IMG/VR virus record: IMGVR_UViG_3300050821_003948
Location: 3,253 to 67,252 of that record
Source: a virus
Reading direction: 5' to 3' (one strand)
DNA: 64,000 bases
Positions 3,797 to 59,045 of this stretch are shown in pieces (positions within the stretch are counted from its first letter, which is position 1; every line of letters begins with the position of its first letter). The notes under the pieces were generated by a model that saw nothing but the letters and a program-made list of their open reading frames with translations, was not told where the DNA came from and did not search any database. The translations under genes were made by a program, and so were the position numbers.

Positions 3797-3830
3797 TTTT
3801 TGACTCATTAGAGCATAGCGCGAGCGGTCA
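3797..3830 (+). repeat. Bipartite site, subfamily E
   Basis: ttttgactcattagagcatagcgcgagcggtca; matches the reverse complement of 24862-24889 (ttttgggtcattagaatccgcgcgagcg). Confidence 0.6.
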
Positions 3831-3924
3831 AGCCCTCAGGGTTACAGCGGCACGTTAGCAATTTGCGCAGATGGATGGCGTCTTCATCCGGTCAGGCGGA
3901 ATCGGCGGAACGCGGCTTTCGCGT

Positions 3925-4143
3925 TTAGAGACGGGGAAAGTGCATCGAGCCGCCACCCCCTGCGAGCAGCGATAGCGCACCGATGATGCAGAGCAACAAG
4001 ACGATGAACCAAATGCCTTGTTCGAGGCGCGCGGGAATTGGCGTGACGAAGGTTTTGATGCCGTAGAGTACCAACCAAATGACACCAGCGAGACAAATAA
4101 TTCCGATAAGCAACCACAAAATAGAAATTGCGAGTTCAACCAT
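3925..4143 (-). CDS. Small two-TM membrane protein
   Basis: 72 aa, two hydrophobic segments, AGGAGG SD. Confidence 0.65.
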   Translation of the reverse strand: MVELAISILWLLIGIICLAGVIWLVLYGIKTFVTPIPARLEQGIWFIVLLLCIIGALSLLAGGGGSMHFPRL

Positions 4144-4276
4144 GACAGCCTCCTATGGGGCTATGACCAAACGCGCCAAATCCAATCTTGTTCCATCCAG
4201 AGACTGACGGCGGTTGCGCGGAAGAATTGAGCGCGGCGCCACGAAGCGCCGTTGCGGTATCTGGTGCGGCGGTCGT

Positions 4277-4936
4277 TCACGCCATCTGCCTTTGCTGCCG
4301 CGGCCAATGACGTTCGGCAGGATTACCAACAACAGTCTGACCCGCAGGAACATCTTTCGTCACGACTGCCCCGGCACCGACCGTGGCACCTTCGCCAACC
4401 TTCACAGCCATCACGGTCGCATTTGCTCCTATGGTCGCGTAGCGCCCCACGTGAACGCCGCCTAATACACAAGCGCCCGCCATAACGGTCACTCCATCTT
4501 CCAAAACACTTTCGTGCTCAACCATCGCAAGGGAGTGAATCATACACCAATCGCCTATAATGGTTTCGTCGCCGATCACAGAATTTCGAATGATTTGGAG
4601 ACCTCTGCCTATTTTTGATTCCTCGCAGATTGTTGCGCTTTGGTGGATGACAGGAACGGGTTCCATACCTAAGCGAAACAGTTGTTCGGAGAGTTCAGCC
4701 CGGCGCTTGCCGTTGCTGCCTATCGCCACTACAAAGTGAGTGCACGAATGTCGCGCTGCTCGCAGGGCAGACTCCATATCATGTAAGATTAAACAATCAC
4801 GCCAAGGCGGCGGCTTAGTTTCATCACTATCCCACACTACCGGAAATTCGTGCAGAGTTCCGACGTACGGTTCGTCTTGCAGAATCCGCCGACAGATGCG
4901 CGCGTGAGACTTAGCGCCGACGAAGAAGATTTTCAT
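4277..4936 (-). CDS. NeuD/PglD-family sugar acetyltransferase (hexapeptide repeats)
   Basis: VVAIG, VIHQSA, left-handed beta-helix repeats, VGAGAVVTKDVP..VVGNPA. Confidence 0.88.
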   Translation of the reverse strand: MKIFFVGAKSHARICRRILQDEPYVGTLHEFPVVWDSDETKPPPWRDCLILHDMESALRAARHSCTHFVVAIGSNGKRRAELSEQLFRLGMEPVPVIHQSATICEESKIGRGLQIIRNSVIGDETIIGDWCMIHSLAMVEHESVLEDGVTVMAGACVLGGVHVGRYATIGANATVMAVKVGEGATVGAGAVVTKDVPAGQTVVGNPAERHWPRQQRQMA

Positions 4937-5048
4937 TTAGAATTCCACTCTTCCTTTTTCGGCTGGGCAATATTTGCACTTATACGGGCGGTAGCAGTAA
5001 GCGCTTTTCCAAACCCACTTGTGCCAACCGAGATAACAGAGAATTTTT

Positions 5049-5567
5049 CTAAACACAGCGCAACCCATCCACCCACGCCGCAAGCTCACTCTCCTGCGGC
5101 GCCCACGGCGGAATCTCCATGTTTTTTCCCGCGACGAACGGCCCGTTCGTTGTTTCGTGAACTACCACAACATCATCGACCGGGATCACGGTGTGCCATA
5201 GAGGCGCGGCCATGCGGAAAACATGTGCGAGATCAAGCGGCGCTGAATCCCTTCCCCAATGGCGCGGTTGATCGAACGCGCGCAATTTCACACGCCGTGT
5301 TACATTTCCAACGTCATCGAAAATTATAACTTCAACACGTCCGCGAATGACGTGCATCGACTCGCTCTTGCCCACATGCCGGTGCGGCATATTCAGCGAG
5401 TCTTTGCGGAACGCGATAATCATTTCGTGCAGAAGATCGTCGTCGCTATTGTGCAGGTTGAGCCTGGCGCGGCGCTTGGGTTCGGTTCCAGATGCTTCGA
5501 TCAGCATATCGATTGTGGCGTCGTCCACTTCGATTACGGGACCGATGTTGCGGAATACGGCGGTCAT
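5049..5567 (-). CDS. WbuC-family cupin-fold metalloprotein
   Basis: RRARLNLH, PHRH..K.ES, WHT, HETTNGPF. Confidence 0.85.
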   Translation of the reverse strand: MTAVFRNIGPVIEVDDATIDMLIEASGTEPKRRARLNLHNSDDDLLHEMIIAFRKDSLNMPHRHVGKSESMHVIRGRVEVIIFDDVGNVTRRVKLRAFDQPRHWGRDSAPLDLAHVFRMAAPLWHTVIPVDDVVVVHETTNGPFVAGKNMEIPPWAPQESELAAWVDGLRCV

Positions 5568-7539: not shown

Positions 7540-7589
7540 AGATTTGTCTCACGATAGTTTGTTAGTTTATACTACCGGACTCGGTCAAC
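7540..7589 (+). repeat. Bipartite site, subfamily A (long)
   Basis: agatttgtcTCACGATAG-N17-CCGGACTCGGTCAAC. Confidence 0.85.
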
Positions 7590-7941
7590 TTACCGCCTCA
7601 AATCCAATCTGGTCATAAGATATTTCCAACCAGCCGTCAGGGGCGTCGGTGGATGGCCATTTCGGATTCTTTACTTCTTCTAAAAGAAAACCACAACCAC
7701 TCCCTATTAAACCTGGGTTGTGAGGACCGCGCATATTAAGAGCGCGAATTGTATAAATTTCACCTACTTTCAGTTTGTTGTGTATTTGGAATTTCTGAGC
7801 AGGATGGTCAGGCAACTCAATATTGAGATACCCGCTCTTAATACACCTAACCTTTTGTCCGACGTTCCAATTACGATGGTTGACCGAGTCCGGTCCATCC
7901 GCGCGCGCAAGACTATCGTGACCAAAATCTTCCGCCATCAC
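7585..7941 (-). CDS. Hypothetical accessory protein bracketed by an inverted pair of A sites
   Basis: 118 aa, AT-richer than neighbours; N-terminus and stop codon both lie inside the flanking repeats. Confidence 0.6.
   Translation of the reverse strand: MMAEDFGHDSLARADGPDSVNHRNWNVGQKVRCIKSGYLNIELPDHPAQKFQIHNKLKVGEIYTIRALNMRGPHNPGLIGSGCGFLLEEVKNPKWPSTDAPDGWLEISYDQIGFEAVS
7879..7930 (-). repeat. Bipartite site, subfamily A (long)
   Basis: GTTGACCGAGTCCGG-N19-CTATCGTGACCaaaatct. Confidence 0.9.
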
Positions 7942-11864: not shown

Positions 11865-11902
11865 TTTGGGTCACGAGATACAGGGACTACGGTGCGGTCA
11901 CC
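11865..11902 (+). repeat. Bipartite site, subfamily A (short)
   Basis: tttGGGTCACGAGat...tacggtgCGGTCACC; TCA-TCA distance 27. Confidence 0.75.
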
Positions 11903-11919
11903 AACCCACACCGACTCAA

Positions 11920-12770: not shown

Positions 12771-12809
12771 TTTGCGTCACGAGAGGGGAGTGATAATGGT
12801 TCGGTCACC
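12771..12809 (+). repeat. Bipartite site, subfamily A (short)
   Basis: tttgcGTCACGAGAG...TCGGTCACC; distance 28. Confidence 0.7.
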
Positions 12810-12842
12810 TGCGGATCGGGAAAGGAAGAAAACACGCCCGAA

Positions 12843-13058
12843 TCAAGTGACTTCCTGAAAGAGTGTTCGGAAGCGTCCATAATAAATGGGGGGGCCTTCC
12901 TCTATAATGAACCATTTTTCAGTTTGGAGAGGCACAAACCTCTCGCCATCAAACGTGCCGATGACTGGTATTGTCTTTGCAGGCGTTGACTTCCCTTTCA
13001 GGAGAGGCAGCATAGCCATACCAACCACTACAGAAAACAATGAACGGCGCGTTGTCAT
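12843..13058 (-). CDS. Small hypothetical protein with TRRSLF twin-arginine-like N-terminus
   Basis: ORF with AGGA SD, inside the bracketed module 12771-13367. Confidence 0.45.
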   Translation of the reverse strand: MTTRRSLFSVVVGMAMLPLLKGKSTPAKTIPVIGTFDGERFVPLQTEKWFIIEEGPPIYYGRFRTLFQEVT

Positions 13059-13070
13059 TGTGATGATTTC

Positions 13071-13367
13071 CTACGGGCCGCCAGTTAGATGAGGCGGCAG
13101 ATTTTTCAGAATTTCCTCAAGATGAGGCATGGGGCGCGCTTGTTCCTCAGCCGCCTGACGCTTACACCATTCATTGAATTCCTCAGCCGAGCGGATCGGA
13201 GGAACCCAGTCGCGGACTTTCTCCTGCAACCGCTCAATCTGATCCGCCGCTTTTAGCAAGAGCCTCATACCGTTCCAATGCACATCGGCTGCAAGCCTAA
13301 GTGTTTTCACCAAGTCGTCGTTGACCGAGTCCGGTCTTTCAGCAATCGAAGAACTCTCGTGACCCAT
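13071..13367 (-). CDS. Hypothetical protein; N-terminus encoded by repeat A (MGHES..RPDSVN)
   Basis: L..LR...AADQIERL motif common in small phage proteins. Confidence 0.6.
   Translation of the reverse strand: MGHESSSIAERPDSVNDDLVKTLRLAADVHWNGMRLLLKAADQIERLQEKVRDWVPPIRSAEEFNEWCKRQAAEEQARPMPHLEEILKNLPPHLTGGP
13320..13367 (-). repeat. Bipartite site, subfamily A (long)
   Basis: GTTGACCGAGTCCGG-N19-CTCTCGTGACCCAT. Confidence 0.92.
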
Positions 13368-13368
13368 C

Positions 13369-15612
13369 TTACGAATTTCCCGAACCTGTAGGCGCCGGCG
13401 GATTCAACACTTGATGCACATCCAAGGCATGTTGCGCAACGTCCATATTCGCGTCATGCACAGCCTGTTGAGAAGCCAACCCATGTTGTGCGACCCCTAA
13501 TCCATGGTGCTGAGCCGCTACCTTGGCGTCATGCGCCGCGTCATCCTTGTGGATCACCATTTCCTTGGCCAGATCGACGGTCGCGATATTCTGTTCCGCC
13601 GCAAGCTGTTGGCGCTTGATATCGAGTTCTGCGGCGTCGTTCTGCGCCCCCGACACAGCCTTGGCCTGCGAAGCCTGTGCACTGATCATCTTGGCATTCG
13701 CCGCAATCATATTCGGATCGGGAGCCGGCGGCGCAGGAGCCTGCTGCGGCAGAACAATATTCGTCGGGTCCTGGCGAATCACCCCGAGAATCGTATTCAA
13801 CGTCCCCCGCGCGTCCATGATCGGCGTGAAGGCTGGAACAGCAATCAATTGAGAAAGCGCGACACCCTTCGCCACTCGATGAATATGCGATGGCGTGTTC
13901 GGATCAGACGCCGGTTCGAGATTGCAATTATTCAAAGCCTGCAAAAACTTTTGTTCGTCCCAATATCCTTTCGGGCAAACTTTATTGGACTTCCAAAAGT
14001 CTTCCGGCTTCTCGCGGAAGAGATCAACGATCAATTCGATTTCTTCGGCTTGAGCTTGGTGCATTCCCTTGTGCGCTGCGGATTCGACCTTGGTTGCTTG
14101 TTCGATTTGGGCGAGCATCGTGCCAACCGGAACGTTCGCGACACCCTCTGCGGTCGGAATATCGCCGGCCGCCGACAGTGCCTGCGTCTGTTGCTGCACC
14201 TTGTCGATCAGCGCGAGCATTCCCGGACCTACGTCTTTGTAAGGCATCGGCGAAATGATATTCCCGATGGCTTGTCCGTTTGTATCAATCGGAACGCCAG
14301 TGCCAGGTCCCACGCGAAAGTCCGATGTATTTTGCCGACCACCGAGTTTCGCGATGAGGAACGACGGGAACGTAGCAAACATGGCCGAATCGAGTGCCAG
14401 ACGCCACGCTGCGGTCAAAGCACTCGACGCATTGCCGAGGATATTCAGCAATCCCGTTCCGTAAAATCCAGGCCCTGGCACATATGGATATTTGACATAC
14501 ATCCGCTTGCGCTGGCAGTCGTCGTCGTCCTCTTTCCAGTCGCGACGAATAGCTTTTATCTCGCGCGAGTCCTTGTCGATCGTCACGAGATACGGCAGCG
14601 GAATTCCTTCACCCTTGAATTTTCCCGGAGCATATTCGGGAAGATCAAGCTCGCATTGCGATTCCCAAATCGTGTAAGGCTCATCCTCGGGACGCGCTTT
14701 CTGCGGCGTCGGATCGGTGCCCTGGATGCCGGCAATCTTCGCGTCAACAGCATTTGGTGATGGAGGTGAAGGAGTCGTGACAGGACCACGCCGATATGCC
14801 CCCATCAACTCCATGCGCTTCATCACCGATGGGCGCATGGGAATCTGGTGGGTGATTCGCGCGCACGAGCGCAGGTCTTTTGTCGTGTCGGAAACGATCA
14901 AATCTTTTTCATCGACACTTTCAGAAACCGGCCTGCGTTTCATCGGGCAGCGATAGATTTTCTTGAATCCAGAGCCGCCGAAATATGTACCCCATAACAG
15001 CATGTGCGACGTATCAGGATAATATTCGGTGGCGGTTTTGGTCAGGTAATGATTCAGATCGCGCTCAAAAGCGTCGGCGAGATTGTCTTCGGATTGGACT
15101 GAGGCATCGTCCTTGTTCGCGACCTTCACCGGACCATCGGACGGCAATAATTCCGCCTGTGCGTTGGCCCAGCCTTTGAGGCAGGCTTCCAGCAAGAGCG
15201 GATTGGTGACGGTGGACATACCTTCGACGGCGGACGAGGTGTCACCGACCGTCGCACGCGGCTCTTTCAGTTCAAGGCCCAACAAGCCTAAGCCTCTGGC
15301 GCGGATTTCAAGGTGATTGCCGCGCGATCGATCATCGGCGGCGATTTGGTCGTGAAGGTCGTTGGCGATCAGAGAGAGATCGTTTGGGGCAATATCGTCG
15401 GCGAGATTACGGTAGAATTTGTCTTCGTCATCGTCGCCGGCTTTCTTCGGCCTGTGCGCGTCCAGTTGGACGACTACGCCGCCATCCGGCTGGGGCGTGG
15501 CAACAGTTCCAGTTATGGGATCGGTCGTGACCTTGCCGTCTTCGTCTTCAATAACGACTTGGATGCCTTCGAAGGGTTGCGCGGCGGGGTCAGCCATTGG
15601 CTGCGCTTTCAT
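13369..15612 (-). CDS. Portal protein
   Basis: 747 aa; PLLLEA..AELLP..GPVK, GSGFKK, PGPGFYG.GL, VGT.LA.IEQ; position near terminase. Confidence 0.88.
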   Translation of the reverse strand: MKAQPMADPAAQPFEGIQVVIEDEDGKVTTDPITGTVATPQPDGGVVVQLDAHRPKKAGDDDEDKFYRNLADDIAPNDLSLIANDLHDQIAADDRSRGNHLEIRARGLGLLGLELKEPRATVGDTSSAVEGMSTVTNPLLLEACLKGWANAQAELLPSDGPVKVANKDDASVQSEDNLADAFERDLNHYLTKTATEYYPDTSHMLLWGTYFGGSGFKKIYRCPMKRRPVSESVDEKDLIVSDTTKDLRSCARITHQIPMRPSVMKRMELMGAYRRGPVTTPSPPSPNAVDAKIAGIQGTDPTPQKARPEDEPYTIWESQCELDLPEYAPGKFKGEGIPLPYLVTIDKDSREIKAIRRDWKEDDDDCQRKRMYVKYPYVPGPGFYGTGLLNILGNASSALTAAWRLALDSAMFATFPSFLIAKLGGRQNTSDFRVGPGTGVPIDTNGQAIGNIISPMPYKDVGPGMLALIDKVQQQTQALSAAGDIPTAEGVANVPVGTMLAQIEQATKVESAAHKGMHQAQAEEIELIVDLFREKPEDFWKSNKVCPKGYWDEQKFLQALNNCNLEPASDPNTPSHIHRVAKGVALSQLIAVPAFTPIMDARGTLNTILGVIRQDPTNIVLPQQAPAPPAPDPNMIAANAKMISAQASQAKAVSGAQNDAAELDIKRQQLAAEQNIATVDLAKEMVIHKDDAAHDAKVAAQHHGLGVAQHGLASQQAVHDANMDVAQHALDVHQVLNPPAPTGSGNS

Positions 15613-15754: not shown

Positions 15755-16102
15755 TCACTTCGCTTTATTCAGACAATCGGCGGCATCAGCAAATTCATTT
15801 AGTCTGCGCGCCAAAGTCCTAGCCGTATCGGCATTAATGTCACATCTTATTTTCTGATATTCGACTTGATTTCCGGCCGCAATCATAACCACAATGTGAG
15901 GCCGAACCTTCAATCCTTGAATATTATGCGAAAATTCCTGCAATCCAATTGACAGAGTTGGATAGTGTGATGTGTCAACACCCCCAGAACCCATCCATAC
16001 AATTCGTTCTGGCATCGGGTCTTTTAAAAAGTCCCTCATGGGTCGCTGATCGCCGGTGACCGAGTCCGGTCTATCGGTTTGCGGCAGACTCTCGTGACCC
16101 AT
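15755..16102 (-). CDS. Hypothetical protein; N-terminus encoded by repeat A (MGHES..RPDSVT)
   Basis: 115 aa, AT-richer than neighbours. Confidence 0.55.
   Translation of the reverse strand: MGHESLPQTDRPDSVTGDQRPMRDFLKDPMPERIVWMGSGGVDTSHYPTLSIGLQEFSHNIQGLKVRPHIVVMIAAGNQVEYQKIRCDINADTARTLARRLNEFADAADCLNKAK
16055..16102 (-). repeat. Bipartite site, subfamily A (long)
   Basis: GGTGACCGAGTCCGG-N19-CTCTCGTGACCCAT. Confidence 0.92.
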
Positions 16103-16331
16103 CTGACTTGTCCTTTTTGAGAGTCCGCAAATGTTCCTTGATGTCCGCTACGGATTGACCGGAATTCACTGCACCCAGATTACCCTTCGCGTATTCTCGC
16201 AAAGCGGCGATAATCATCTGGGCATTTTGAACGAAAGGCCGCGTTTCAAGATGGCCAGTTTCTTTCCCGGCTTTCAATTCGCGTTCACACCAATCGGCCA
16301 CTTCCGTCGCATAACGCCTATCTTCACTCAT
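16071..16331 (-). CDS. Hypothetical protein
   Basis: ATGA-coupled to the upstream ORF. Confidence 0.5.
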   Translation of the reverse strand: MSEDRRYATEVADWCERELKAGKETGHLETRPFVQNAQMIIAALREYAKGNLGAVNSGQSVADIKEHLRTLKKDKSDGSRESAANR

Positions 16332-18481: not shown

Positions 18482-18515
18482 GGCCTGCGCGTTCTAAATC
18501 TCAGCGCGGTCACCC
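18469..18515 (+). repeat. Bipartite site, subfamily D
   Basis: TTGTCTCATTC-N20-CTCAGCGCGGTCACCC; distance 36. Confidence 0.8.
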
Positions 18516-18681
18516 TCTCGCAGTGCCAATTCCAGAGCAGAACGAGACACAGCAATTTGAAGTGCTACATTCACGCAAGGGTATTGCATGTAAACAGCGC
18601 AATCATCCACATCAGATTCGTAATCCAAATCCGGCGCAGTGGAATGTCCCCACGCCCGAATATGGAATCTCTTTGAACACA

Positions 18682-19446
18682 TCACTGCCCACCGAGCCGA
18701 TACGTCAAATCAACCTCAATTCCCAGTTCCCGCGCCTGATTCGCAAGCTGCGCCACAAGCTCCTGATCGCTCAATCGCGACAATTCGCCATCGTCACGCG
18801 TCGCTGCACCAAACCCGTAAAATTTACGCAATTCAGTGTTGGCTTGCATTTTCGAGTAGGGCTTGGGAATAACCATCCCAGCCTCGTTAATCGAAAAACT
18901 CTCAATGGCCCGCTGCACATCTTCGGGCATTTCATTTAGCGGCTTCGGCCGCTGAACCATTTTGGTGGCCGGTTCTCCAGTTTCATTGTCGATTATTGCA
19001 TTGCCCTTGCGGTCGTAGATAGGCATTTCCACCATCGTCCACATATCGGCAGCATTGGTTTCGTGGGCGAGCCAAAGAAATTCCTCGATTCGCTCGCGTT
19101 TGATTCGGAGAATTTCGTCTTCCTGCCGCGACAGAAAAGCTATCCGCTCCATCACGTCATGGCGCCGTTCCAAACGCGAGGCATTGCCGGCGGCAGCGTG
19201 ATCGGATTCGGTACTGTAGCCCGCCTGCCGATAGGCGTCGGCTTTGGGTCTCAGAACAGCGCGAAGGCGGCAAAACCGCTCTTTTTTGTTATCTCGCAGT
19301 GGCTTAGAGCCTGGAACATCAAAGGACTGCGCTGGAACGAGCGAAGTTCCGAGACCAGATTGCTGCTGCGAATCGTTGACCGAATCCGGTGATTCAGTCG
19401 GAAGACCCTCTCGTGATCCAGTATGTTGCACTGCACTATCCGTCAC
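18682..19446 (-). CDS. terS: Terminase small subunit
   Basis: KERFC..AYRQAGYS...ASRL HTH; upstream of terL. Confidence 0.8.
   Translation of the reverse strand: MTDSAVQHTGSREGLPTESPDSVNDSQQQSGLGTSLVPAQSFDVPGSKPLRDNKKERFCRLRAVLRPKADAYRQAGYSTESDHAAAGNASRLERRHDVMERIAFLSRQEDEILRIKRERIEEFLWLAHETNAADMWTMVEMPIYDRKGNAIIDNETGEPATKMVQRPKPLNEMPEDVQRAIESFSINEAGMVIPKPYSKMQANTELRKFYGFGAATRDDGELSRLSDQELVAQLANQARELGIEVDLTYRLGGQ
19375..19420 (-). repeat. Bipartite site, subfamily A (long), in the terS 5' end
   Basis: GTTGACCGAaTCCGG-N18-CTCTCGTGAtCCA. Confidence 0.88.
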
Positions 19447-42017: not shown

Positions 42018-42025
42018 TCTTGCAA

Positions 42026-42142
42026 TCACCCGAGATATATCTTCGCGCCAATGAGAACCACCCACATTCCAACGCCGACAATTGCGATGGCGCGTATTGT
42101 TTGTTCAATTGGTCCACACTCCTTCCACGGCGTCATCTTCAT
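42026..42142 (-). CDS. 38-aa single-TM microprotein between two B sites
   Basis: Manual translation MKMTPWKECGPIEQTIRAIAIVGVGMWVVLIGAKIYLG. Confidence 0.5.
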   Translation of the reverse strand: MKMTPWKECGPIEQTIRAIAIVGVGMWVVLIGAKIYLG

Positions 42143-42152
42143 TTTCTCGAAC

Positions 42153-42215
42153 CCCAATGGCCGTAAGAATCTCACAGAACTTTTGAGAGACTAGGTAGCC
42201 AAGCTAACAAACAAA
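42153..42215 (-). repeat. Bipartite site, family B (right-type)
   Basis: atggccgtaagaatctcacagaac...aggtagccaagctaacaaacaaa. Confidence 0.9.
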
Positions 42216-43465: not shown

Positions 43466-43629
43466 ACATAATAACCGTGAGCCACCATCACGCTCAAAAC
43501 CCCACTTGCGACAACTCCGAGCCCGAGAATGACGCGCTGAAACCCCGTCAACCTTTCCTCAAGCGGATCGTTGACCGAGTCCGGTCTTTCAACCTGCACA
43601 ACGGGAGCGTGACCAAAATGCCTGCTCAC
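43447..43629 (-). CDS. Small TM protein; N-terminus encoded by repeat A
   Basis: FGHAP..RPDSVND followed by a TM helix. Confidence 0.5.
   Translation of the reverse strand: MSRHFGHAPVVQVERPDSVNDPLEERLTGFQRVILGLGVVASGVLSVMVAHGYYVWFLKP
43570..43618 (-). repeat. Bipartite site, subfamily A (long)
   Basis: GTTGACCGAGTCCGG-N19-ggagCGTGACCAAAA. Confidence 0.85.
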
Positions 43630-44148: not shown

Positions 44149-46878
44149 CTAGGCATGATGGTCCTTTGCGGTTTTGTTTGACTCATTCTCTCGCAGCGCA
44201 GCCTTCGACTCAGCGCGGTCACCCAATCGCTTCAACAAAACAGCTTCATTGTGCGGATAAGGTTTCTTGTACAAGTCCGGCGGCGGACGCTTGGGATGTT
44301 CGTGTTCGATATGAGAAAGCAACCCGTCCATCACTTCCTCGTAGTTGTCCCAATTCAATCCGCGAGCCTTTACCATCGCACGCTCTGCCGCCGTACCGTC
44401 TTCGGCGTGCGCTTTCTCGTAGGACTTTCCCGCGCGCATCGCCTTGTGTTCTTCACGCTCGTGTTCGGCAAGAAACTCCGATGGGTCGATTGACTCGTAG
44501 CCTTTTCCATTCGCGCGCTTCACTGCGATTCGCGTGGGCACGCGGCGATCAATGTAAACGGTTTTATCGTCGTCGGACGATCCAGCGAGGTAGGGCACGT
44601 CGTATTTGCGATTGACGCTTGATTTATCGGCGGATTTGGATTCTACTTGTCCTTTATGCCCCGATTCACCCCCCACCTTGCCGCCCGTGGCGCGCTGTTG
44701 CTGTACGCGACCGCCTGTTTTCTGTGCCTCTACTGGCCCTGGAACGGGCTGCTGCTGGTTCTGGGCGCCCGCGCCGCCTGTAAGCTGCAAAACCGAGGGA
44801 GGCAACGTGGTGGCCTCCCTAGCCCCAGCCATGGCAGCGGCCCGCGACCCAGTTTCCCGCAAAGCCTGACCAATCCGAGGATTTGAGGAAGCCGCCGACA
44901 ACCCACGCGCGATATCCGCCGGGTTGCTGGTCGTAAGTAGTTCCGCCACTCGTTTTGCTGTATTACGATCCACATAGCCCAAGGCCGAACGGAACCCAGC
45001 CGTAATCGCTTCCGGCGCGATGCGCCGCGCTCCCATGCCCCCTAGGAACCCCTCACCAGCACCACGCCAATCGCCCGTGAGATAGCCCCCAGCGGCACCT
45101 CCAGCCAAACCGGCCTCGATCATCTGTCGCGCCGTCGTGGAATTGCCAAGAGCTTTGCGGACCGCGTCGAACACCCGTTCACGGTCCACAAAGGCCCCTA
45201 GGCGGTCTGCCGCAGGCTGTCCCAATACCGCCGCTATCCGTTGTCTTTCCTGCGGTGAATTGTAAATTCGATTTGTCACGTCCTGATTGTCGGAAACACC
45301 TTCCGCCTTGCGTGCCATGGCGTCGGCATAGGACTCCTGAAAAATCTCCCGCTCCGCAGGCTTCATCTGAGCCATCGTGCGTTGCAAATCACGCACGTCA
45401 CCCTTGAAATTCAACGCCTGCTGTCCAGCTTCGATAGCGTTGTTGCCACCAAAATACCGCGCGGCAATACCACGAGCATCGGCAAATTCCGGAACCTGCT
45501 TGTCAAGCTCCGCTTTGAGTTGTTGTTCCAAACCACCGTAAAGAGCAGCATCCGTGTTATTCCCGGCACGGCGCGCTTGTGCTGCCATGCCAGACAGATT
45601 ACGTGATGCATAATCCCAAAATTGTAAATTCGGATAAGGCAACATTCCCTTACCCGGCAAGAACTTTAACTGTCCATCGGGTGTCACATTGACGGGCGGA
45701 TTCATCGCACCGAATCCATCCTTCACCTGAAAATCCTGCCAGCGATTCACAGCGCCGCGTATCGCACCCGCGACGCTTGGCGCCGACGACAGCCTTTCTA
45801 ATTCTGGCGACCAAATAGGGCGGTCGCCAGCTTGATAGGCCGCACCGTAAGCACCACCGCGTTCAAGATCATATTCCGCTTCAAGTTGAGCTTTGGTCTT
45901 AGCAGTATCGGCACCGCCGGAAACCAAGCCACGGATCGTCGAACCAGCCCGATCATTCTGTTCGGCAAACCGATCGGCAACCGTACTCTGAATTAGGGCG
46001 CGACCTTCCGGCGATGTATTCGCCGCGGAGCGCAGTAAAGCACGCGTCGTTTCGCCGCCCAAGTCCGCAGCCATCACAGGCTGGCCCGCAGCGTGCGCAG
46101 CCACATATTCTCCAGGCGTCAAGCCCAAGGTTTGACCGGCCGCCACCTGCGGAGCGTCGGTCGTCAAGGCACCGTAAACCCGGCGGGCCGCTTCCTTCGC
46201 CGGGTCGATCATCCCGCGAACTGCGGAAGCGATAGGACGCCCATAAAGGTCGTAACCGAACTGGAGTCCCTTTCCAATCGCGCTGCCGCCTAACTCACCC
46301 CCGGCACCACCTAAGCCACCCTCGATACCACCAGTCACCGCGCCAATAGCCGCTCCCGGCAATCCACCCTCTCGCGTACCTTCCGCAGCGCCCGTGACGG
46401 CACCATAGCCGGCACCAATTTTAGCACCCTGGACAAGACGCGCCGGCAACCCAGCCACCTGCCCTATAGGCAAAGCTGCCATGGTCGCACCAGCGCCGCC
46501 TAGTTCACCCGCGCCGTAATAGTAAGGGTGTTGCACCTGCGCCGCGTCGCGCTGCCTTTTTGCGTCGTCGCGAGCCGAATGATAAATGCCAGTCAAGCCG
46601 CCAGACTTGTTGATTTGGTCTTCGTAATCTTGCACCTGATCCGGCGGCACATAGCCGCGCGCTTCCGCAGCGCCAACAGCCGCCATAAGGCCGGTTATCT
46701 CGTCAGACCATCCTGCACTGGCGCCAGACTTTAAGCCCTCCCAAGCCGCGCGAGCACCTCCGACCTGCGGAGTAGTAGGAGTTGCATTTGCAGGATCAAA
46801 AGGCGGCGGCGACTCTGCACCAACAGGTGTCGCCGCTGTCGGATCAAAGGGAGGTGGTGCATCGTCTGCCATCGTCAA
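44149..46878 (-). CDS. Large internal virion (DNA ejection) protein
   Basis: 909 aa, Gly/Ala-rich; GASAGWSDE, GNSTTARQ motifs. Confidence 0.7.
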   Translation of the reverse strand: MTMADDAPPPFDPTAATPVGAESPPPFDPANATPTTPQVGGARAAWEGLKSGASAGWSDEITGLMAAVGAAEARGYVPPDQVQDYEDQINKSGGLTGIYHSARDDAKRQRDAAQVQHPYYYGAGELGGAGATMAALPIGQVAGLPARLVQGAKIGAGYGAVTGAAEGTREGGLPGAAIGAVTGGIEGGLGGAGGELGGSAIGKGLQFGYDLYGRPIASAVRGMIDPAKEAARRVYGALTTDAPQVAAGQTLGLTPGEYVAAHAAGQPVMAADLGGETTRALLRSAANTSPEGRALIQSTVADRFAEQNDRAGSTIRGLVSGGADTAKTKAQLEAEYDLERGGAYGAAYQAGDRPIWSPELERLSSAPSVAGAIRGAVNRWQDFQVKDGFGAMNPPVNVTPDGQLKFLPGKGMLPYPNLQFWDYASRNLSGMAAQARRAGNNTDAALYGGLEQQLKAELDKQVPEFADARGIAARYFGGNNAIEAGQQALNFKGDVRDLQRTMAQMKPAEREIFQESYADAMARKAEGVSDNQDVTNRIYNSPQERQRIAAVLGQPAADRLGAFVDRERVFDAVRKALGNSTTARQMIEAGLAGGAAGGYLTGDWRGAGEGFLGGMGARRIAPEAITAGFRSALGYVDRNTAKRVAELLTTSNPADIARGLSAASSNPRIGQALRETGSRAAAMAGAREATTLPPSVLQLTGGAGAQNQQQPVPGPVEAQKTGGRVQQQRATGGKVGGESGHKGQVESKSADKSSVNRKYDVPYLAGSSDDDKTVYIDRRVPTRIAVKRANGKGYESIDPSEFLAEHEREEHKAMRAGKSYEKAHAEDGTAAERAMVKARGLNWDNYEEVMDGLLSHIEHEHPKRPPPDLYKKPYPHNEAVLLKRLGDRAESKAALRENESNKTAKDHHA
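44177..44224 (+). repeat. Bipartite site, subfamily D
   Basis: TTTGACTCATTCTC-N18-CTCAGCGCGGTCACCC; distance 36. Confidence 0.85.
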
Positions 46879-49800
46879 CCCTTTTGTGGGCTCGGGTCAT
46901 TGTACGAACCGTCAGGTTGCAACTTGTAAATCCATCCGTTAGATCGCATAGCCGGCGGCTTCGTGGTGGCTTGCGGCACGCCCGCATTTTGACCACCGGG
47001 AGCACCCGCAGTCGGCATCGTAGTCGCCGCAGGCGCGCCCTTACCACTGATTCGCGATAAAATAGCTTGCCTTACAATCTCTGGCGCAATCTTGGCCGCT
47101 TCCATTTCCTGCCCCATTTGCTCCAAAGCGGCCTGAATACCTTCATGCCCGGTCGCTTTTGCAAGAAGATCATGAGCGGACTGTTGAGCAAACACCGAGT
47201 TGGTTCCCGTTCGCGACATCGCTTGAGAGTAAGCCGTCATCGCACCTTGGAGCGCGGTATTATAACGAATATAACGCGGGTCGCTCGTGCCGGACTGAAC
47301 CATCTGTTCAAGTTTATTGATCGGGACCCAGTCACTACGCGGCAACGCCGCGGAAGCCTGTAGCGCAAGCGGGAATGTTTGTTTTGCTTCTTCAACCGCA
47401 GCATCAACGTTAGCCGAACGTTTCGCCGCCGTCGAAGCTGCCGCTGATTGACTCGTAAAGTTTGCTTTTGCCGCCGCCAAGTCCGCCCCGCTCCATCCCT
47501 CAGTTGCAGCGCGTTCCGCCAGACGGTTTTGAATACGCGTTAGATTCTGACCGGTCTGCGCCCCGCGACCGAGATTTTGCAATGCGGACGGATCACCCGC
47601 GTGGATACGATCAACCGCCAGATTCACCGCGGCGTCAGTCATAAGGCCACTGTCGTTTGTAGCTATGGTCTCGCCAGTTTTTGGATTAACCAACTCTTGA
47701 CCAGGAGTCATCACTTTCGGAGCATTCAATTGACGCTCCAATTCGTCTTGTTGATGTTGTAGTGTCGCCTTCTGATACGGCGTCATTTGCGTTTGAGTGA
47801 ATTTCTGTGCGCTCTCTTCCAACTGATTGCGTTTCGTTTCTTGCGCAATCCGATCCTGCTCAGCCTTCGCCGCCTGATTCAACTGCTTCACTTTCAGGTC
47901 AACATCCTGATCTTGTTTCTTCAACCCGCTATAGGTCTGCAAGCCTTGCAAGCCGCCCTCTCCGATAGCCGTTCCCAGGAAAGGCGACCGCGAAGCCATC
48001 ATGCCCAAGCCCGCCGCCATGAGCGACTGATAAAAATTAGGAGACAGCCCGAGCAATCCTTTCTCCTGCGAACGAGATTCCGCAGGCGCACTGGTGACCG
48101 AGTCCGGTGGCACAACAGGCGCAGCGTTGCGTGACCCATCATCCGAAAAAGCAAGTGCAGACGATCCGAGCCCAGCCTGCGGCGCAGACGTTCCTTGCGT
48201 AATTTCGGGAGGCAACGCATCGGCCAAACCGGGCCGTGATCGCGGCAGCGGAACATCGTCACCTTGCGGCGCAGGAGCATAAGGAGAACTTTGCCCGTAA
48301 GTCTGAAACTTCAAAATATTCTCAAGAGGATTCGCTTCACCTGCACTGTTATTATACAACCCCGCAGGAACAGACGGCTGGACAAATCGATCAGACGGAA
48401 AATTAACGACATCGCCATCATCGTCGGGAGACCCACCAGATGCAAACCGTCGCCGCGGCATGAACGACGCCATTCCAAGCCCGGCGCGCACGGGCGCACC
48501 ACCACGTTTCAACTGAATCCTGTTCGTCTTCGGAAAAACCAATCCACCATGGGCATAAAGTGCGGTATCGCTTGACGTAGGCGGCATCACAGCCGAATCC
48601 ATACTCCCGAAAGCATCCAGCGGCAGACTATTATTGCCAACACCAGAAACCTGCGGAGCAATATTCATCGGCGCTCCAGGCTGCGCAGGCTTATTCGGAA
48701 ACGCTTTCTTCATCGCATCAGAAAATCCAGCAGCGTTCTGCGCCATCTGTTGCGGCGTTTGGACTTGCTGTTCTGGAATCTTTGGAGGAGACGGTAAATC
48801 CTTACCATGCGGCATCTGTCCGGGCGTCAACCATGGATTGCCCGGAAGGCCGGGAGAAAACCCGAACCCCGACGGCACACCACCATCGGCTAAACCTTGA
48901 ACGCGCCCGCCAAAATAACGACGTGCAGCGCTCTTGGTCGCCTCATCGTAATCGACGTGTTTGAATCCGTTCACTTCATGCACGGCATCGGGATTAACCT
49001 TCTCGACATCCTGCGCCAACAAACCGATACGAGTCTCAGGATCGCCTTTGTAGTTGAATCTATAAATATGCTGACCATCATTGAGCGAACCGATCTTTCT
49101 GATATTCTCTTTCGCGCGCTTGTCGGATAGTGCTGCTAATCCGGCAATGCCTTGCGAACCGCCCGCTTGTCCTGCGGCACCGAGCCCAGCAATACCGAGT
49201 CCCAAATACTGCGCCAACGGATTCGGCGCTGGCCCCGTCGTGCTTGACGTTCCACCTTCCTGCGATCCCACACCCGTCAACAGCGGCAGTTCCCAACTCA
49301 ACATGCTTTCCGGCATGAACTGCTGCTGCATGAACTGCTGATAAGCCGCCGTGTCTTGCGCCTGCTGTGTTTGTTGTTCAAGCGTGCCGGCTCCAACTTG
49401 CGCGTTGGCGCCAGTGAGCGCGGCATTCTCCAGTCCCTGACCCGTACTGGCGATACCGTAAGCGGCCTGTTCGGGATTCTGTTGGAACTGCTGACCGGCC
49501 GTTTGCAGAGCTTGCGTGTAACCCTGATTTTCCAGCCCAGCAATGACCGGCGCTTCTTGCGCCGATTGTTGTCCGGCAAGAACGGATTGTGCAACGGCAG
49601 TCCGATCGCCACCCAATGCACCTTGCGCGGCAGCATTCCCTAAAACTTGCTGCTGTTGAATCGCGTTCTGATTGTTCATTTGTTGTTCGGTCGCCTGAAC
49701 AACATCCTGCGTATAGGGCGATTGGTATTGTTGAATCTGTTGCTGCGTCAACGGCTGCGCAGCGTTCTCCTGCAAGCCAGCGGCCTCCTGCATATAAGGA

Positions 49801-51995: not shown

Positions 51996-52011
51996 GGGTT
52001 AGGCTTTAAGA

Positions 52012-52060
52012 TTTTGGGTCACGAGAGGGCGTACCGTTTGCATCGCCGGACTCGGTCAAC
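52012..52060 (+). repeat. Bipartite site, subfamily A (long)
   Basis: TTTTGGGTCACGAGAG-N18-CCGGACTCGGTCAAC. Confidence 0.92.
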
Positions 52061-52079
52061 TTACCATCGTTTTTAGCGT

Positions 52080-53026: not shown

Positions 53027-53055
53027 TTGACAGACGCCAATTCTAGGCCCATTAT
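53027..53055 (+). promoter_or_regulatory. Sigma70-like promoter of the transposase
   Basis: TTGACA-N17-CATTAT. Confidence 0.65.
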
Positions 53056-53080
53056 GAACCCACAATTCAGGGAGCCGAAG

Positions 53081-53968
53081 ATGCAACATTTTGAAAGCCT
53101 CATTGACCTTTTCCGGGCATTTCCGAACGAGGATGCCTGCGTTAAACACCTTCGGGCAACCCGCTGGCACAACGGCGAATATTGCCCGCACTGCGGCCAC
53201 GATAAGGTTTACCCACTTTCCAAGCGCCGTCTTTTCAAGTGCGCCCAGTGCCGCATTAACTTCTCTATCAGAGTCGGAACGATTTTTGAAGACTCCAAAT
53301 TGCCCTTGCAAAAGTGGTTCGCTGCGATTTGGCTTATCACCAATCACCCCAAGGGCATCGCCTCTACCACGCTCGCCAAGGATTTGAAGGTCACGCAAAA
53401 AACCGCATGGTTTATCCTGCACCGGCTGCGCCACGCTTCGCGGATCAAGACTTTCGACAAGCCGCTGTCCGGCATTGTCGAGATTGACCAGACTTTCGTG
53501 AAGGGTGGCAAGCCCAACAAGGCGCGGAAGGACGGCCACGTCGGCGTTATCGGCGCAGCCGAGCGCAAAGGCCACGTGGTTGCTCGCGTGGTTCCGACCG
53601 GGCTTGGCTGGTCTGAGGCCCAAAAGTTTATCCGCGACGTTGTGGCGCCGGATGCACAGGGTTTGATGACGGATGGCGCCCACGTATTTCACGGCATCAG
53701 CGATTATCCGCAGCACGAAATGATTAACCACCGCAAGGAAGGTCACAAGCGGGGCGCTGTCCACACCCAAACGATTGAAAGCGTATGGGCGCAGTTGAAG
53801 CGCCAAATCGTCGGCATTCATCACTGGGTCTCGCCGAAACATTTGCAAAACTACGTCAACGAAATGGCGTGGCGCATGTCGCGCCGTGATCTGACCGCGA
53901 CGGATCGGATGAACTCGTTGTTTGTTCACGTCGAAGGCAAACTCACATACAAGGCGCTGATCGCATGA
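53081..53968 (+). CDS. IS1595-family (ISXO2-like) DDE transposase
   Basis: CPHC..C..C zinc ribbon, FS.RVGTIFEDSKLPL.KW, HTH, VEID/TD/IES catalytic triad, KHLQ.Y..E; GGAG SD before MQHF. Confidence 0.92.
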   Translation: MQHFESLIDLFRAFPNEDACVKHLRATRWHNGEYCPHCGHDKVYPLSKRRLFKCAQCRINFSIRVGTIFEDSKLPLQKWFAAIWLITNHPKGIASTTLAKDLKVTQKTAWFILHRLRHASRIKTFDKPLSGIVEIDQTFVKGGKPNKARKDGHVGVIGAAERKGHVVARVVPTGLGWSEAQKFIRDVVAPDAQGLMTDGAHVFHGISDYPQHEMINHRKEGHKRGAVHTQTIESVWAQLKRQIVGIHHWVSPKHLQNYVNEMAWRMSRRDLTATDRMNSLFVHVEGKLTYKALIA

Positions 53969-54368: not shown

Positions 54369-54387
54369 ATTTTTTCATTTTCTCGAA

Positions 54388-54449
54388 CCTCTATGGCCGT
54401 AAGAATCTCACAGAACTGTTGAGGGCCAAGGTAGCCAAGCTAACCAAAC
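54388..54449 (-). repeat. Bipartite site, family B (right-type)
   Basis: cctctatggccgtaagaatctcacagaac...ccaaggtagccaagctaaccaaac. Confidence 0.92.
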
Positions 54450-56708: not shown

Positions 56709-56714
56709 GGGACA

Positions 56715-58268
56715 TCAGCACATGAGTTCGATTAATTCGACAGTGCTATTCACAGTCGTTGAAAATACCGTGCCGCTTCCAACGATGATCGTGCCACTCG
56801 AACATTTGGCAAATATATAGTAGGATTGTGCAGAGACAACTCCAGGCTGATCGTAAGCAACAACAGGAGCGCTGCTTACAATACCGCTGCTAGAGACACC
56901 ACCGCCGCCGCTTGTCGTAGGACTTCCGACCAACGTCGGCGACGTTCCTCTGGACCACTGCAAAATCGCATTCGTTGATCCCTGTTGGACGTAAACAATA
57001 CCGCGAGCGACGATAAGATTCGCTCGGCTCGATGGTGTGATGCTTGCTGTAACGGCAGTCTGCGTATTCGATTGGCCCACCGTCGTCGGCGTTGAAATCG
57101 TTGCGGTGATATTTTGCAAAGCGTCGCCAGGCTTCTTTACGCCCGGACCAAAGAGACGAACAAATGTCGGCGCGTTATTATAGGTTCCGGCCGTGACGAG
57201 TCCGGTTTCGTAGGTCAGATAACCCAGAATCCTGATCACGCTTGAGGCAACCGATGTTCCATTTGCGCAATAGAACACGCCAGCAGACGTTGCGCCCGCA
57301 CTCATCTGTGTTGGTGTGACCGCAGAACCCGCTTCATCGAGCGAAGTGATTCCCCCACTGAGCGTCGAACAATTGATCAGTCCCAGAGCCGGCGTTCCAC
57401 CATTGGAATACAGCACCACCCAAAACCGAAACGGCGTGCCATTTTGCGATCCGAGGGTGGCGCCTACGATTGTTGAAATCGACAATGCGCTGGTAATATT
57501 AGAGGTGGTCGGAGTCCCAATAGCGCCTGTCCCATTCTGGAAAATCACCGTGACCGGATTGCCCACCGTGGGACTCGCCACTGTATTGGCCGCGAGCAAA
57601 GACACCGTGAGAATATTCGATCCAACCGTCGCCGATAGCGCGAGATTTTGCGCGGTATTGAACCCAGGCTGTCCCGCAACATTGACCCACTGCGCCGTGC
57701 TCGCAGTTCCTGTCGTCGTGCACAGATAGAGTTGCCCGGCGTTGAAATCGGCCGCGAGCGAAGCATTGACGTTCGCCGCGCCAGCCGTTCCCGCAAGCTG
57801 CGTGTTCGGGCTTCCAGACACCGCAGGCACCGACGCTGGGAGGCCTGTGTTATCGTAGCCAACGTTAAGTGTATCCGAATAGAGCGCACACGCCTGCCCC
57901 TGTGGTACTGTCACAACGCCCGACGTGGCATTAGCTGCGGCCGTCTTCACGCTGAGCTTATGCGCGTTGCTGGTGTTGTTGATGACGATGAATTTTCCGC
58001 CGACTGCAACTGTCGTTGAATTGGTAGAAAACGGCAGGATCAAACTGTGATCCCCGGTCAATGCACCATTGACGATGAAGATTGCGTTCTGAAATTGCGT
58101 GGTGGTCAGGGTCACATCGACAGAGGTAATCGACGTGGAAAAGTTGGAGCCGAGGATGTTGTCGAGCGCCCCAATAACCCCGTTATTAAGGATTGTCCCC
58201 CACGTTCCACTGTCCCCGCCTTGCTGCGGCTGAATCAGCGCCAGATTATTCGTTAACGCGTCGGCCAT
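56715..58268 (-). CDS. Tail fibre/spike-like protein
   Basis: G..SGTWGT..N N-terminal anchor; Thr/Ser/Gly-rich. Confidence 0.68.
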   Translation of the reverse strand: MADALTNNLALIQPQQGGDSGTWGTILNNGVIGALDNILGSNFSTSITSVDVTLTTTQFQNAIFIVNGALTGDHSLILPFSTNSTTVAVGGKFIVINNTSNAHKLSVKTAAANATSGVVTVPQGQACALYSDTLNVGYDNTGLPASVPAVSGSPNTQLAGTAGAANVNASLAADFNAGQLYLCTTTGTASTAQWVNVAGQPGFNTAQNLALSATVGSNILTVSLLAANTVASPTVGNPVTVIFQNGTGAIGTPTTSNITSALSISTIVGATLGSQNGTPFRFWVVLYSNGGTPALGLINCSTLSGGITSLDEAGSAVTPTQMSAGATSAGVFYCANGTSVASSVIRILGYLTYETGLVTAGTYNNAPTFVRLFGPGVKKPGDALQNITATISTPTTVGQSNTQTAVTASITPSSRANLIVARGIVYVQQGSTNAILQWSRGTSPTLVGSPTTSGGGGVSSSGIVSSAPVVAYDQPGVVSAQSYYIFAKCSSGTIIVGSGTVFSTTVNSTVELIELMC

Positions 58269-58269
58269 C

Positions 58270-58989
58270 TTACGTCCTCGGCGGCGTTGCCAGCGGCGCA
58301 GGTGCCTTTGACGACCAACCCTGCGACGTGAATTTCTTCATAGCCTCTTCGGTCTCTGCGGATTTCAAGAGGGTTTGTAGATGACTTTCCCAGTTGGTTG
58401 CCATCGCGGGATTGTCTATCGCGCCAGAGGCACCAAAGTTTTGTTGCCATCCCGCCGCATAGACCATGCTGGCAGCAATCAAGCAGTCCGGAAAATAAGT
58501 CGATAGGAGCGTTGTCGGGTTTGTGGACGAAATCGGTATCGGGCGGATAGTGCCCACCACTTCCGCTTGGTATGCTTGATCCGGCCACGGTCCTACGATG
58601 TAGGAATTCTGCGTGGTTGGTGCAAAGTACGCCGGCACGCCGGAACCTGCCGAACTCGGAAATAGCGCATCGATGAAAGACCGCGACGCAGGCGTGAGAT
58701 AGTTGTGAGTCCCTTGATCGGGATTCACCGTGCCAGCAGGCGTAATCGCATAGATCGAATCGACCACATAGAACGTGCCTTGTGCGGATGGCAGATTGAA
58801 GGTGCGGGTGTTCGTCGTGAACGCAATCGAGGAATCCCGGACCACGGTATTGAGAAGCTGCAACTCGCGATAAAGTCTCTGCTCCGCGTCGTCGATGATG
58901 TTGAGCAATGCGCCCTGGAAATCTGCATTGGTGGAGGACACCACGAGATTGTTGGCGAGACTCTGAACGTATGTGGTGTAGTTGAGCAT
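58270..58989 (-). CDS. Head-tail adaptor protein
   Basis: II..AEQRLYREL, GVPAYFA, VGPWPD..Y. Confidence 0.72.
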   Translation of the reverse strand: MLNYTTYVQSLANNLVVSSTNADFQGALLNIIDDAEQRLYRELQLLNTVVRDSSIAFTTNTRTFNLPSAQGTFYVVDSIYAITPAGTVNPDQGTHNYLTPASRSFIDALFPSSAGSGVPAYFAPTTQNSYIVGPWPDQAYQAEVVGTIRPIPISSTNPTTLLSTYFPDCLIAASMVYAAGWQQNFGASGAIDNPAMATNWESHLQTLLKSAETEEAMKKFTSQGWSSKAPAPLATPPRT

Positions 58990-58997
58990 GGTTTAGG

Positions 58998-59045
58998 TTT
59001 GACTCATTCTCGCGTCTTCGCTTGCGTATCTCAGTGCGGTCACCC
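58998..59045 (+). repeat. Bipartite site, subfamily D
   Basis: TTTGACTCATTCTC-N18-CTCAGTGCGGTCACCC; contains the stop of 59040-60662. Confidence 0.85.

Follow-up and report, generated by a model that had tools for sequence, protein, structure and literature searches.

How small accessory genes ("morons" and ORFans) come and go in phage genomes is a question that the DNA studied here raises directly, as such genes turn over fast and the mechanism is known for very few groups. The window analyzed is a stretch of 64,000 nucleotides, bases 3253 to 67252 of the 67,252-bp virus record IMGVR_UViG_3300050821_003948, and thus covers most of a 67-kb phage genome (G000). A preliminary description listed about 27 oriented two-box sites in this window and proposed that they bracket gene modules like balanced parentheses and organize the mosaicism of the entire genome. 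We analyzed these sites in the window and in five related records (G001 to G005), each of which was examined whole. In our best reading, the sites are brackets that mark swappable accessory cassettes rather than organize the whole genome. The preliminary description was therefore right in kind (cassette boundaries), over-extended in its genome-wide organizer, and wrong on its candidate enzymes. Positions below are those of the window unless a relative is named, and a sign in parentheses gives the orientation of a site or gene.

All 27 listed places hold sequences as described. A hidden Markov model (HMM) scan of the window at E ≤ 1e-3 retrieved 20 sites, comprising 10 of family A, 6 of family B (each ∼66 nt) and 4 of family C, and for these three families the repeats are real and statistically strong. 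Family A has the architecture TTTGGGTCACGAGAG-N17-19-CCGGACTCGGTCAMC, its consensus being wTTTGGGTCACGAGAG, 17 to 19 variable bases, and then CCGGACTCGGTCAMC; GGTCAC is common to both boxes, which are thus direct-repeat-like. The A 13-mer CCGGACTCGGTCA is present in 10 copies, exact or with one mismatch, compared with 0.13 expected, and none of 100 shuffles reached 10. The A HMM matched the 10 window copies with E-values of 1e-7 to 1e-14, and a loose two-box regular expression found 11 sites in the genome versus 0 to 1 in 30 Markov shuffles. The remaining groups are weaker. Group D (26753 and 27546) is a two-copy direct repeat, group F (3797 and 24843) is a loose two-copy pair, and group E (11865, 12771, and 27025) combines Box 1 of family A with shorter spacing and a Box 2 of the GCGGTCACC type; the A HMM matched E sites at Box 1 only (E of 0.1 to 8). 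Taken together, there are two unrelated bracket families, namely, A (with variants C and E) and B. Spacer lengths among 79 unique A sites were 19 nt (n = 43), 18 nt (n = 28), 17 nt (n = 5), 20 nt (n = 2), and 21 nt (n = 1). Because these lengths vary and are not multiples of three, the boxes are not in a fixed frame, and we rejected a protein motif (a "GHES...PDSV" peptide) as what keeps them conserved, even though some sites are translated.

In agreement with the preliminary description, the sites are mostly found at gene junctions: by our own gene calls, 24 of the 27 lie in intergenic gaps or at their edges. Three lie within or overlap open reading frames (ORFs). The site at 19375 is in the predicted N-terminal region of terS, that at 44177 overlaps gene 44149-46872 at its 3' end, and that at 48093 is inside a gene for a 1039-aa protein.

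The pairing of sites was counted among HMM-defined neighbors within 1.5 kb of each other in the window and in the relatives' contigs, with each unique pair counted once and a pair called convergent when Box 1 is outside and Box 2 inside. Of 64 unique neighboring pairs, 49 were convergent, 10 divergent, and 5 co-oriented (p = 7e-18 against an expectation of one-quarter). Metagenome loci, with 17 already-counted pairs dropped, added 16 pairs, of which 11 were convergent (p = 3e-4). The basic unit is thus a convergent, mirror-image (inverted) pair. Across 59 unique convergent pairs, the inner lengths ranged from 3 to 2317 nt; most enclose one small gene, and five are empty. Within the window, the order of orientations is as first listed, with 23 runs in 27 sites (permutation p = 0.0005), while restriction to the 20 HMM-defined sites gives 15 runs (p = 0.044). 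The preliminary description also had the subfamilies pairing freely with one another, which the counts contradict: convergent orientation was found for 24/24 B-B, 15/20 A-A, and 10/13 A-C neighbors and for 0/5 A-B neighbors. Thus, B sites have B partners, and the partner of an A site is another A site or one of variant C. The exception to family-matched pairing is an A...B pair around a segment with an IS1595-family transposase. Likewise, the pairs that had been said to enclose terS, the portal gene, and an ejection protein proved to be neighboring sites of different cassettes or solitary sites.

Six short pairs are present in the window (7540/7879, 12771/13320, 20979/21925, 24363/24843, 41954/42153, and 52012/54388), all of which hold genes without a tblastn match in G001, G002, and G003; several of these cargo genes have low third-position G+C. 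The cassette at 7540-7930 is bounded by A sites at 7541..7590 (+) and 7876..7930 (−). Its cargo, an ORF of 117 aa at 7585..7938 (−) with low third-position G+C and no Pfam match, reads through the right A site. The cassette at 12771-13369 has an E-type left bracket (12771..12813, +), two cargo ORFs of 71 and 98 aa (12843..13367, −), and an A site as right bracket (13318..13369, −) directly after the stop of the portal gene. An ORF at 24394-24828 is flanked by a B site on its left (24363..24435, +) and a loose F-type site on its right (24843..24890, −). A mini cassette encloses a 38-aa ORF (42026..42142, −) between B sites at 41954..42022 (+) and 42145..42215 (−). The sixth pair delimits a 2.3-kb segment specific to G000 (52012-54449) with an A site at its left edge (52011..52062, +) and a B site at its right edge (54381..54449, −), the latter being 3 nt after the stop of gene 54453-56708. 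The IS1595-family transposase gene of this segment (53027..53968, +; PF12762, 2.1e-30; PF12760, 5.4e-14) is on the plus strand within the leftward tail operon.

The HMUDK (5-hmdU DNA kinase) cassette consists of B sites at 20981..21047 (+) and 21922..21990 (−) around a gene for a 5-hmdU DNA kinase family protein (21048..21902, −; PF18723, 1.6e-45), and its right bracket follows directly after the stop of an MT-A70 methylase gene. The kinase is the lone cargo of this B cassette beside the methylase (21048-23357). As the kinase is absent from G001, G002, and G003, thymidine hypermodification may be recently gained or incomplete in this phage.

The two brackets of a cassette differ in step with transcription. 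We designate as class I the sites that run from Box 1 to Box 2 along transcription and as class II those that run against it; in the cassette at 7540-7930, for example, the left site is class II with respect to leftward transcription and the right site is class I. Every short pair has class I upstream of the cargo and class II downstream. Class I sites are open in all three frames and often start with ATG or TTG at a fixed place; otherwise, a purine-rich stretch and a start codon follow ∼20 nt downstream. Class II sites have TGA in both boxes, and the start of the next gene is 3 to 25 nt further on. In family A, the class II spacer is rich in A when read as mRNA, and it recurs at different loci and in different phages. 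In family B, the upstream type ends in ...CCATAGAGGGTGGAGAAA-ATG and the downstream type ends in ...CCATAGAGnCTTGCA. The cargo is on the strand of both flanks in 25 of 29 callable cases and opposite to them in the other 4. The brackets are thus adapted to positions inside operons, and because the upstream bracket is open and contains or precedes the cargo's ribosome-binding site and start codon, and the downstream bracket carries TGA with the start of the next core gene close by, insertion does the operon little harm.

Comparison with relatives was informative locus by locus. Synteny with the window extends to G001 (66.5 kb) and to the 41-kb fragment G003, at ∼70 to 85% nucleotide identity; G002 is more distant, G004 shares only the early/replication module, and G005 shares almost nothing. 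Four loci show differing cargo, or none, between brackets. At 7540/7879, both G000 and G003 have a cargo between two A sites, and the cargoes are unrelated (that of G003 we take to be MazG-like); G001 has a third ORF without sites. On either side of this cassette, BLAST homology between G000 and G003 reaches the inner edge of Box 2 and stops exactly there. At the tail locus between genes 51642-51995 and 54453-56708, the A(2.3 kb)B arrangement of G000 corresponds to an empty C(14 bp)A pair in G001 and to B(∼330 bp)B in G002. At the scaffold locus, G000 has a 61-aa ORF that lacks brackets, G001 has A...E, G002 has 18 bp only, and G003 has A...A with an ORF reading through both brackets. After the MT-A70 gene, B...B cassettes of 316 to 948 nt are present in G000, G001, and three collected loci (L015, L021, and L059), and only two of these are alike. 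In addition, the junction after the exonuclease gene measures 5 nt in G000, holds A(ORF)C in G002, and holds an ORF with one A bracket in G003. The insertions in G002 and G003 fit precisely between the stop codon and the start codon, and they supply a new ribosome-binding site.

Homotypic empty pairs (∼116 to 147 nt) fold as long hairpins (z of −5.8 to −8.0), as any inverted repeat must, and an A-C empty pair does not (z of −0.2 and −2.0). An empty A-A pair with a Box 2-to-Box 2 gap of 19 bp lies at 40070-40190 of G003 (70-185 of L054), where a rightward and a leftward operon converge. With a predicted folding energy of −49 to −59 kcal/mol, this pair could serve as a two-way transcript end.

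Public viral contigs have the A pattern at 38 loci and the B pattern at 41. The A 13-mer has 12, 7, 18, 2, and 1 copies in G001 to G005, respectively, a range of 1 to 18 per genome across the six phage records. A scan of 185,579 bacterial and archaeal species genomes (one per species) gave nine A-pattern matches. Eight of these are probably fortuitous and fall, in our reading, in a conserved gene for an atpD-like ATPase, and one, on a contig of a Tepidisphaeraceae metagenome-assembled genome (L040), is a plausible A-like site; this contig has no clear genes in common with these phages. The strict A pattern matches the atpD-like gene of Actinomycetota and other bacteria by chance (L039, L041 to L044, L046, and L047), an expected false positive. 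A metagenome scan retrieved 77 loci, some of which may be chance atpD-like matches; all are on contigs of at most ∼60 kb, and no sites were seen in large bacterial contigs. Given the results of the two scans, the repeats look confined to an uncultured phage clade.

We consider it most probable, at about 0.42, that the sites are boundary repeats of exchangeable accessory-gene cassettes situated in gaps between core genes. The analysis shows the repeats themselves, how they are paired, oriented, and positioned, that their cargo varies, that some pairs are empty, and that transposition scars are absent. That exchange takes place at the brackets, the machinery behind it, and the reason for the strong conservation of the boxes are inferred. 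A cassette consists of cargo between a left bracket and its mirror image on the right, each bracket being two invariant boxes of ∼15 nt with a variable spacer between them. The brackets would act as conserved joints that are portable and allow co-infecting relatives to replace one cargo by another. The exchange would most likely take place by homologous recombination through the brackets, aided by the phage's recombination genes, which include an exonuclease; alternatively, a putative protein recognizing the boxes may drive it. With the two ends of a cassette in mirror image, recombination between them would not delete the cargo. An exonuclease is present in the early operon of the window (phrog_10477, 1.6e-10), but an annealing protein was not identified.

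A more elaborate version, which we regard as improbable, is a dedicated protein-guided cassette exchange in this soil-phage clade, a natural counterpart of recombinase-mediated cassette exchange. A candidate enzyme would bind both boxes of each bracket and swap the content of the mirror-image pair, so that accessory genes could be traded between loci and phages without scars and with operons undisturbed. Families A/C/E and B might then represent two orthogonal specificities.

Several observations weigh against cassette exchange at the brackets, or limit its reach. No cargo was found at two different loci, and among the 59 cassettes, only one cross-family likeness between cargoes was detected (40% over 57 aa). 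A tblastn search of 16 cargo proteins against all collected loci matched only site-encoded peptides, and when cassette interiors of 90 nt or more were compared by tblastx, most matches were syntenic. Variable genes without any bracket exist; in the late regions, 6 of ∼16 variable segments have no site by our own count. One-bracket cassettes also exist, at 16055 in G000 and at 31.7 to 32.0 kb in G003. No exchange event was seen. Over 7201-27200, assembled contigs, which drop minor forms, showed neither alternative nor inversion joints; loose contig ends in this region were other repeat copies of the same genome. Brackets at the same locus have diverged outside the boxes about as much as their flanks, so that nothing recent is visible and the conservation of the boxes needs a direct function. 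Finally, for recombination of the host RecA type, a length of 47 nt, of which ∼30 positions are conserved, is short.

The proposal of genome-wide module swapping holds only in part. Convergent pairs do delimit units that are swapped between relatives, but the sites do not organize the mosaicism of core modules. The preliminary description had called for a comparison of synteny breakpoints in relatives, and for core genes the outcome went against it: jumps in amino acid identity were no larger at core-gene junctions with sites than at those without (16.6 versus 17.4 percentage points for G001, 14.2 versus 21.3 for G003, and 13.1 versus 16.3 for G002). A test of gene-presence boundaries gave an odds ratio of ∼3 against G001 (p of 0.03 to 0.04) and nothing against G003. 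Several brackets are solitary at conserved junctions. Because similarity breaks in the core are not concentrated at sites, "genome-wide parentheses around core modules" is overstretched. G004 matches window positions 19600-29350 in a replication, immunity, and early module at 35 to 86% amino acid identity (most genes >60%), and all but one of its HMM sites are in this common module, the exception being a C site near 57 kb. The structural genes of G004 are entirely different from those of the window, a large-scale module swap that no bracket sites mark.

Other explanations have to account for the same features. The pairs could be terminal inverted repeats of non-autonomous transposable elements, with the empty pairs being MITEs (miniature inverted-repeat transposable elements) and the loaded pairs mobile insertion cassettes (MICs), which are terminal inverted repeats that carry passenger genes and are moved in trans. 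The mover would be a transposase from the host, another element, or the phage. This explanation is doubtful overall and still a serious one. It is favored by long terminal inverted repeats with direct-repeat-like boxes, empty units that fold as long hairpins, variable copy number, sites read in frame inside ORFs, and IS1595 transposases in G000 and G004 (which has two more distant copies). A survey also reports many MITEs in some soil-phage groups (PMC11602168). However, target-site duplications, which the preliminary description did not find at three pairs, were likewise missing from 31 B and 24 A candidate pairs (offsets 0 to 31, lengths 3 to 9); the sole enriched 4-mer was a self-complementary part inside the repeat. 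Heterotypic A-C ends are common, as the convergent counts show, and insertions fall precisely between stop and start codons with coupling signals. Both the single plausible match among the species genomes and the restriction of the metagenome matches to short contigs also speak against mobile elements of this kind. The IS1595 transposase, put forward earlier as a possible enzyme of the system, is present in the window but absent from the site-rich G001, G002, and G003, and it is missing from G005 too. The 39-nt inverted repeats of the insertion sequence copy (52080-52118 and 52985-53023) are unlike A or B and do not enclose the transposase gene. It is a passenger or secondary insertion, not the enzyme of the system. 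The second proposed enzyme, a tyrosine integrase, fared no better: the integrase-like gene of G000 falls below PF00589 (no match at E ≤ 0.001). No resolvase, invertase, or Y1 transposase was found in the genomes searched (all six for resolvase and invertase). These results bear on a further possibility, that the pairs are invertible segments (invertons, resembling shufflons) whose cargo is switched on and off as a recombinase flips them. Inverted repeats around single small genes, an integrase-like gene in most relatives, and the four cargoes opposite to their flanks would be compatible with flipping. Yet the cargo is otherwise co-oriented with its flanks, the left and right brackets differ in spacer and inner flank in step with cargo direction, and neither a PF00589 match in G000 nor an inversion joint was found (the latter being weak evidence, as contigs drop minor forms). 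We therefore regard invertons as very unlikely.

Equally serious, and to our minds just as doubtful as mobile elements, is the explanation that the boxes are binding sites of a regulator (an operator, roadblock, insulator, or terminator-promoter punctuation, comparable to stoperators or PeSLs) and that cassette turnover is a by-product. Single A sites have no consensus fold on either strand (43 + 28 aligned sites), and partner arms do not co-vary (p of 0.27 and 0.23), which speaks for recognition of each box as sequence and fits a protein that reads the invariant boxes. Spacers come in orientation-specific classes, an A-A pair marks a convergent operon junction in G003, and the early rightward array of small ORFs (29500-38600) has no A-F sites at all. 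Even in G004, positions are preserved for the C site upstream of the HTH gene and for the A sites that lie upstream of early genes. Against a regulator, sigma-70-like promoters and intrinsic terminators were not enriched in 7001-27000 (10 versus 10.8 expected and 18 versus 23.1 expected, respectively), although the host's promoters may differ from the sigma-70 consensus. The only promoter or terminator match to overlap a site, a promoter-like match at 7544-7573, has its second hexamer in the variable spacer. Moreover, sites occur in both orientations relative to transcription, several are translated or within long ORFs, and mirror-image flanks of the same family at the 5' and 3' sides of the cargo would be left unexplained. 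Lastly, chance combined with hand-picking of loosely similar motifs has a negligible probability. Groups D, E, and F are loose, the list of 27 was curated by eye, and the alternation of HMM-defined sites in one genome is of modest significance, but for families A, B, and C, chance is refuted by the copy excess over shuffles and by the convergent counts, including those of the new metagenome pairs.

The closest described system is that of the promoter-early stem-loop (PeSL) cassettes of T4-type phages, which have the same role with another architecture and orientation. PeSLs are junction repeats that flank nonessential, highly variable ORFs; indels and replacements between relatives fall at the repeats, which have been proposed as joints of modular shuffling (PMC2839356, PMC4122927). 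Each comprises a sigma-70-like promoter and a terminator stem-loop in the same direction, and direct copies recombine into mini-circles (PMC2839356, PMC4122927). The present phages likewise have short conserved repeats flanking variable ORFs, with indels between relatives at the repeats. In contrast, the sites described here have no promoter or terminator signal (judged by the sigma-70 consensus only), do not fold singly, form two unrelated families, and can be read as protein, and cassette ends are mirror images rather than direct copies, with only 5/64 pairs co-oriented. MITEs are terminal inverted repeats moved in trans, and the survey cited above, which drew on the same public collection, mentions 99 of them in Acidobacteriae UBA7540 phages (PMC11602168). 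The sites resemble MITEs and MICs as terminal inverted repeats that lack a transposase and are found in many copies, empty and loaded, with copy number varying; they depart from them in the missing target-site duplications and the mixed A-C ends, and no autonomous element with matching ends was found in these genomes; among the bacterial genomes scanned, one plausible site was seen. The brackets thus resemble both PeSLs and MITE/MIC elements and fit neither.

Looser likenesses extend to three other systems. The attC site of integrons is a complete palindrome after each ORF in a one-way array next to intI. Empty homotypic pairs are comparable to attC as imperfect palindromes with outer and inner conserved box pairs and unpaired spacers, and the cargo, like integron cassettes, consists of single promoterless genes of very diverse function. 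An A-C empty pair, however, does not fold, and partner arms do not co-vary. Unlike in integrons, the ORF is inside the palindrome, the units are scattered, and an IntI-type integrase was not detected (PF00589, G000). The stoperators of cluster A mycobacteriophages are single 13- to 14-bp sites in one orientation relative to transcription; they share with the present sites the many copies of a conserved sequence in short intergenic gaps of long operons, whereas here both orientations occur within one operon. The enterobacterial repetitive intergenic consensus sequences, or intergenic repeat units (ERIC/IRU), are imperfect palindromes of ∼120 nt that lie in transcribed gaps, contain internal insertions, and are not known to have a transposase. 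The likeness to ERICs is by description only, and ERICs carry no genes. Within the literature searched, we found no account of phage accessory genes enclosed by two-box brackets in mirror image.

This clade offers a countable case of accessory-gene turnover, in which the brackets are conserved and in mirror image, the same loci have slots that are empty in some phages and loaded in others, and the bracket families are two and independent. Should the brackets be true exchange joints, the movement of genes, a DNA modification kinase among them, without breakage of long operons would be explained, and the brackets could help to locate accessory genes in metagenomic data or provide natural landing pads for phage engineering. 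If they are regulator sites instead, they would define a large regulon of a DNA-binding protein in an uncultured phage group.

Outside the six short pairs, the window has the following sites. An F-type site is at 3797..3845 (+), and a solitary E-type site with Box 1 as in A and ACGGTGCGGTCACC as Box 2 lies between conserved genes at 11865..11907 (+). The A site at 16053..16104 (−) is at the start of the cargo ORF 15755-16102 and has no left partner here; G003 has a pair at this locus. A C site (18464..18520, +) is just upstream of the large terminase gene. The CCGGATTCGGTCA variant of the A site (19372..19423, −) is in the 5' part of the small terminase ORF and occurs in the same place in G001, G003, and L017. 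Together with the C site before the HTH gene, this terS site has kept its position across relatives. The latter C site (25586..25640, +) is just upstream of the HTH gene 24876-25583 and is in the same place in G004; a Cro/YdaS-like gene (25972-26175) and this HTH_3 gene are both on the minus strand, with the C site between them. The A site at 26464..26514 (−) is just upstream of the early rightward gene 26516-26746, and its spacer class is conserved in G001, G004, and L021. It is followed by the first D repeat copy (26753..26815, +), an E-type site (27025..27066, −), the second D repeat copy (27546..27608, +), and an A site (28874..28923, −) between gene 28400-28879, which has its TGA stop in Box 2, and an HNH gene (28913-29350).

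In the second leftward region, an A site with a degenerate Box 1 (43567..43620, −) precedes C sites upstream of gene 43908-44156 (44171..44230, +) and of gene 58270-58989 (58993..59050, +). Another A site with a degenerate Box 1 (48091..48141, −) is read in frame in a variable linker of the 1039-aa virion protein, and G001 has it too. In G002, this position is taken by an equally long segment that lacks the site, and a nearby mosaic break falls ∼70 residues further on.

The only sequencing run found to hold the window sequence is a DNA run of a soil metagenome, probably the source sample; no RNA run was found to hold it. A close cultured relative was not found, as megablast gave no match and the best terminase identity was 39%. 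The window has a G+C content of 55.6%. By our own crude gene caller, transcription is leftward over 1 to 25.8 kb and 39 to 64 kb and rightward over 26.3 to 39 kb. No tRNAs were found in the window, and no known RNA family reached the gathering threshold there; at E ≤ 1, two weak matches were retrieved, both unrelated to the sites. Pfam and PHROG matches include a Mu-gpT-like head protein (weak), portal, large and small terminases, a DegT aminotransferase, the 5-hmdU DNA kinase family protein, MT-A70 methylase, an HTH protein, an HNH/DUF968 protein, a Cro-like protein, and a GH108 lysin. The integrase match is weak in the window (integrase-like protein, 32717-33772), and an integrase-like gene is found in most relatives. 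The DegT/DnrJ-type aminotransferase gene (5564-6700) is located among conserved genes between genes of the head module (4277-8852).

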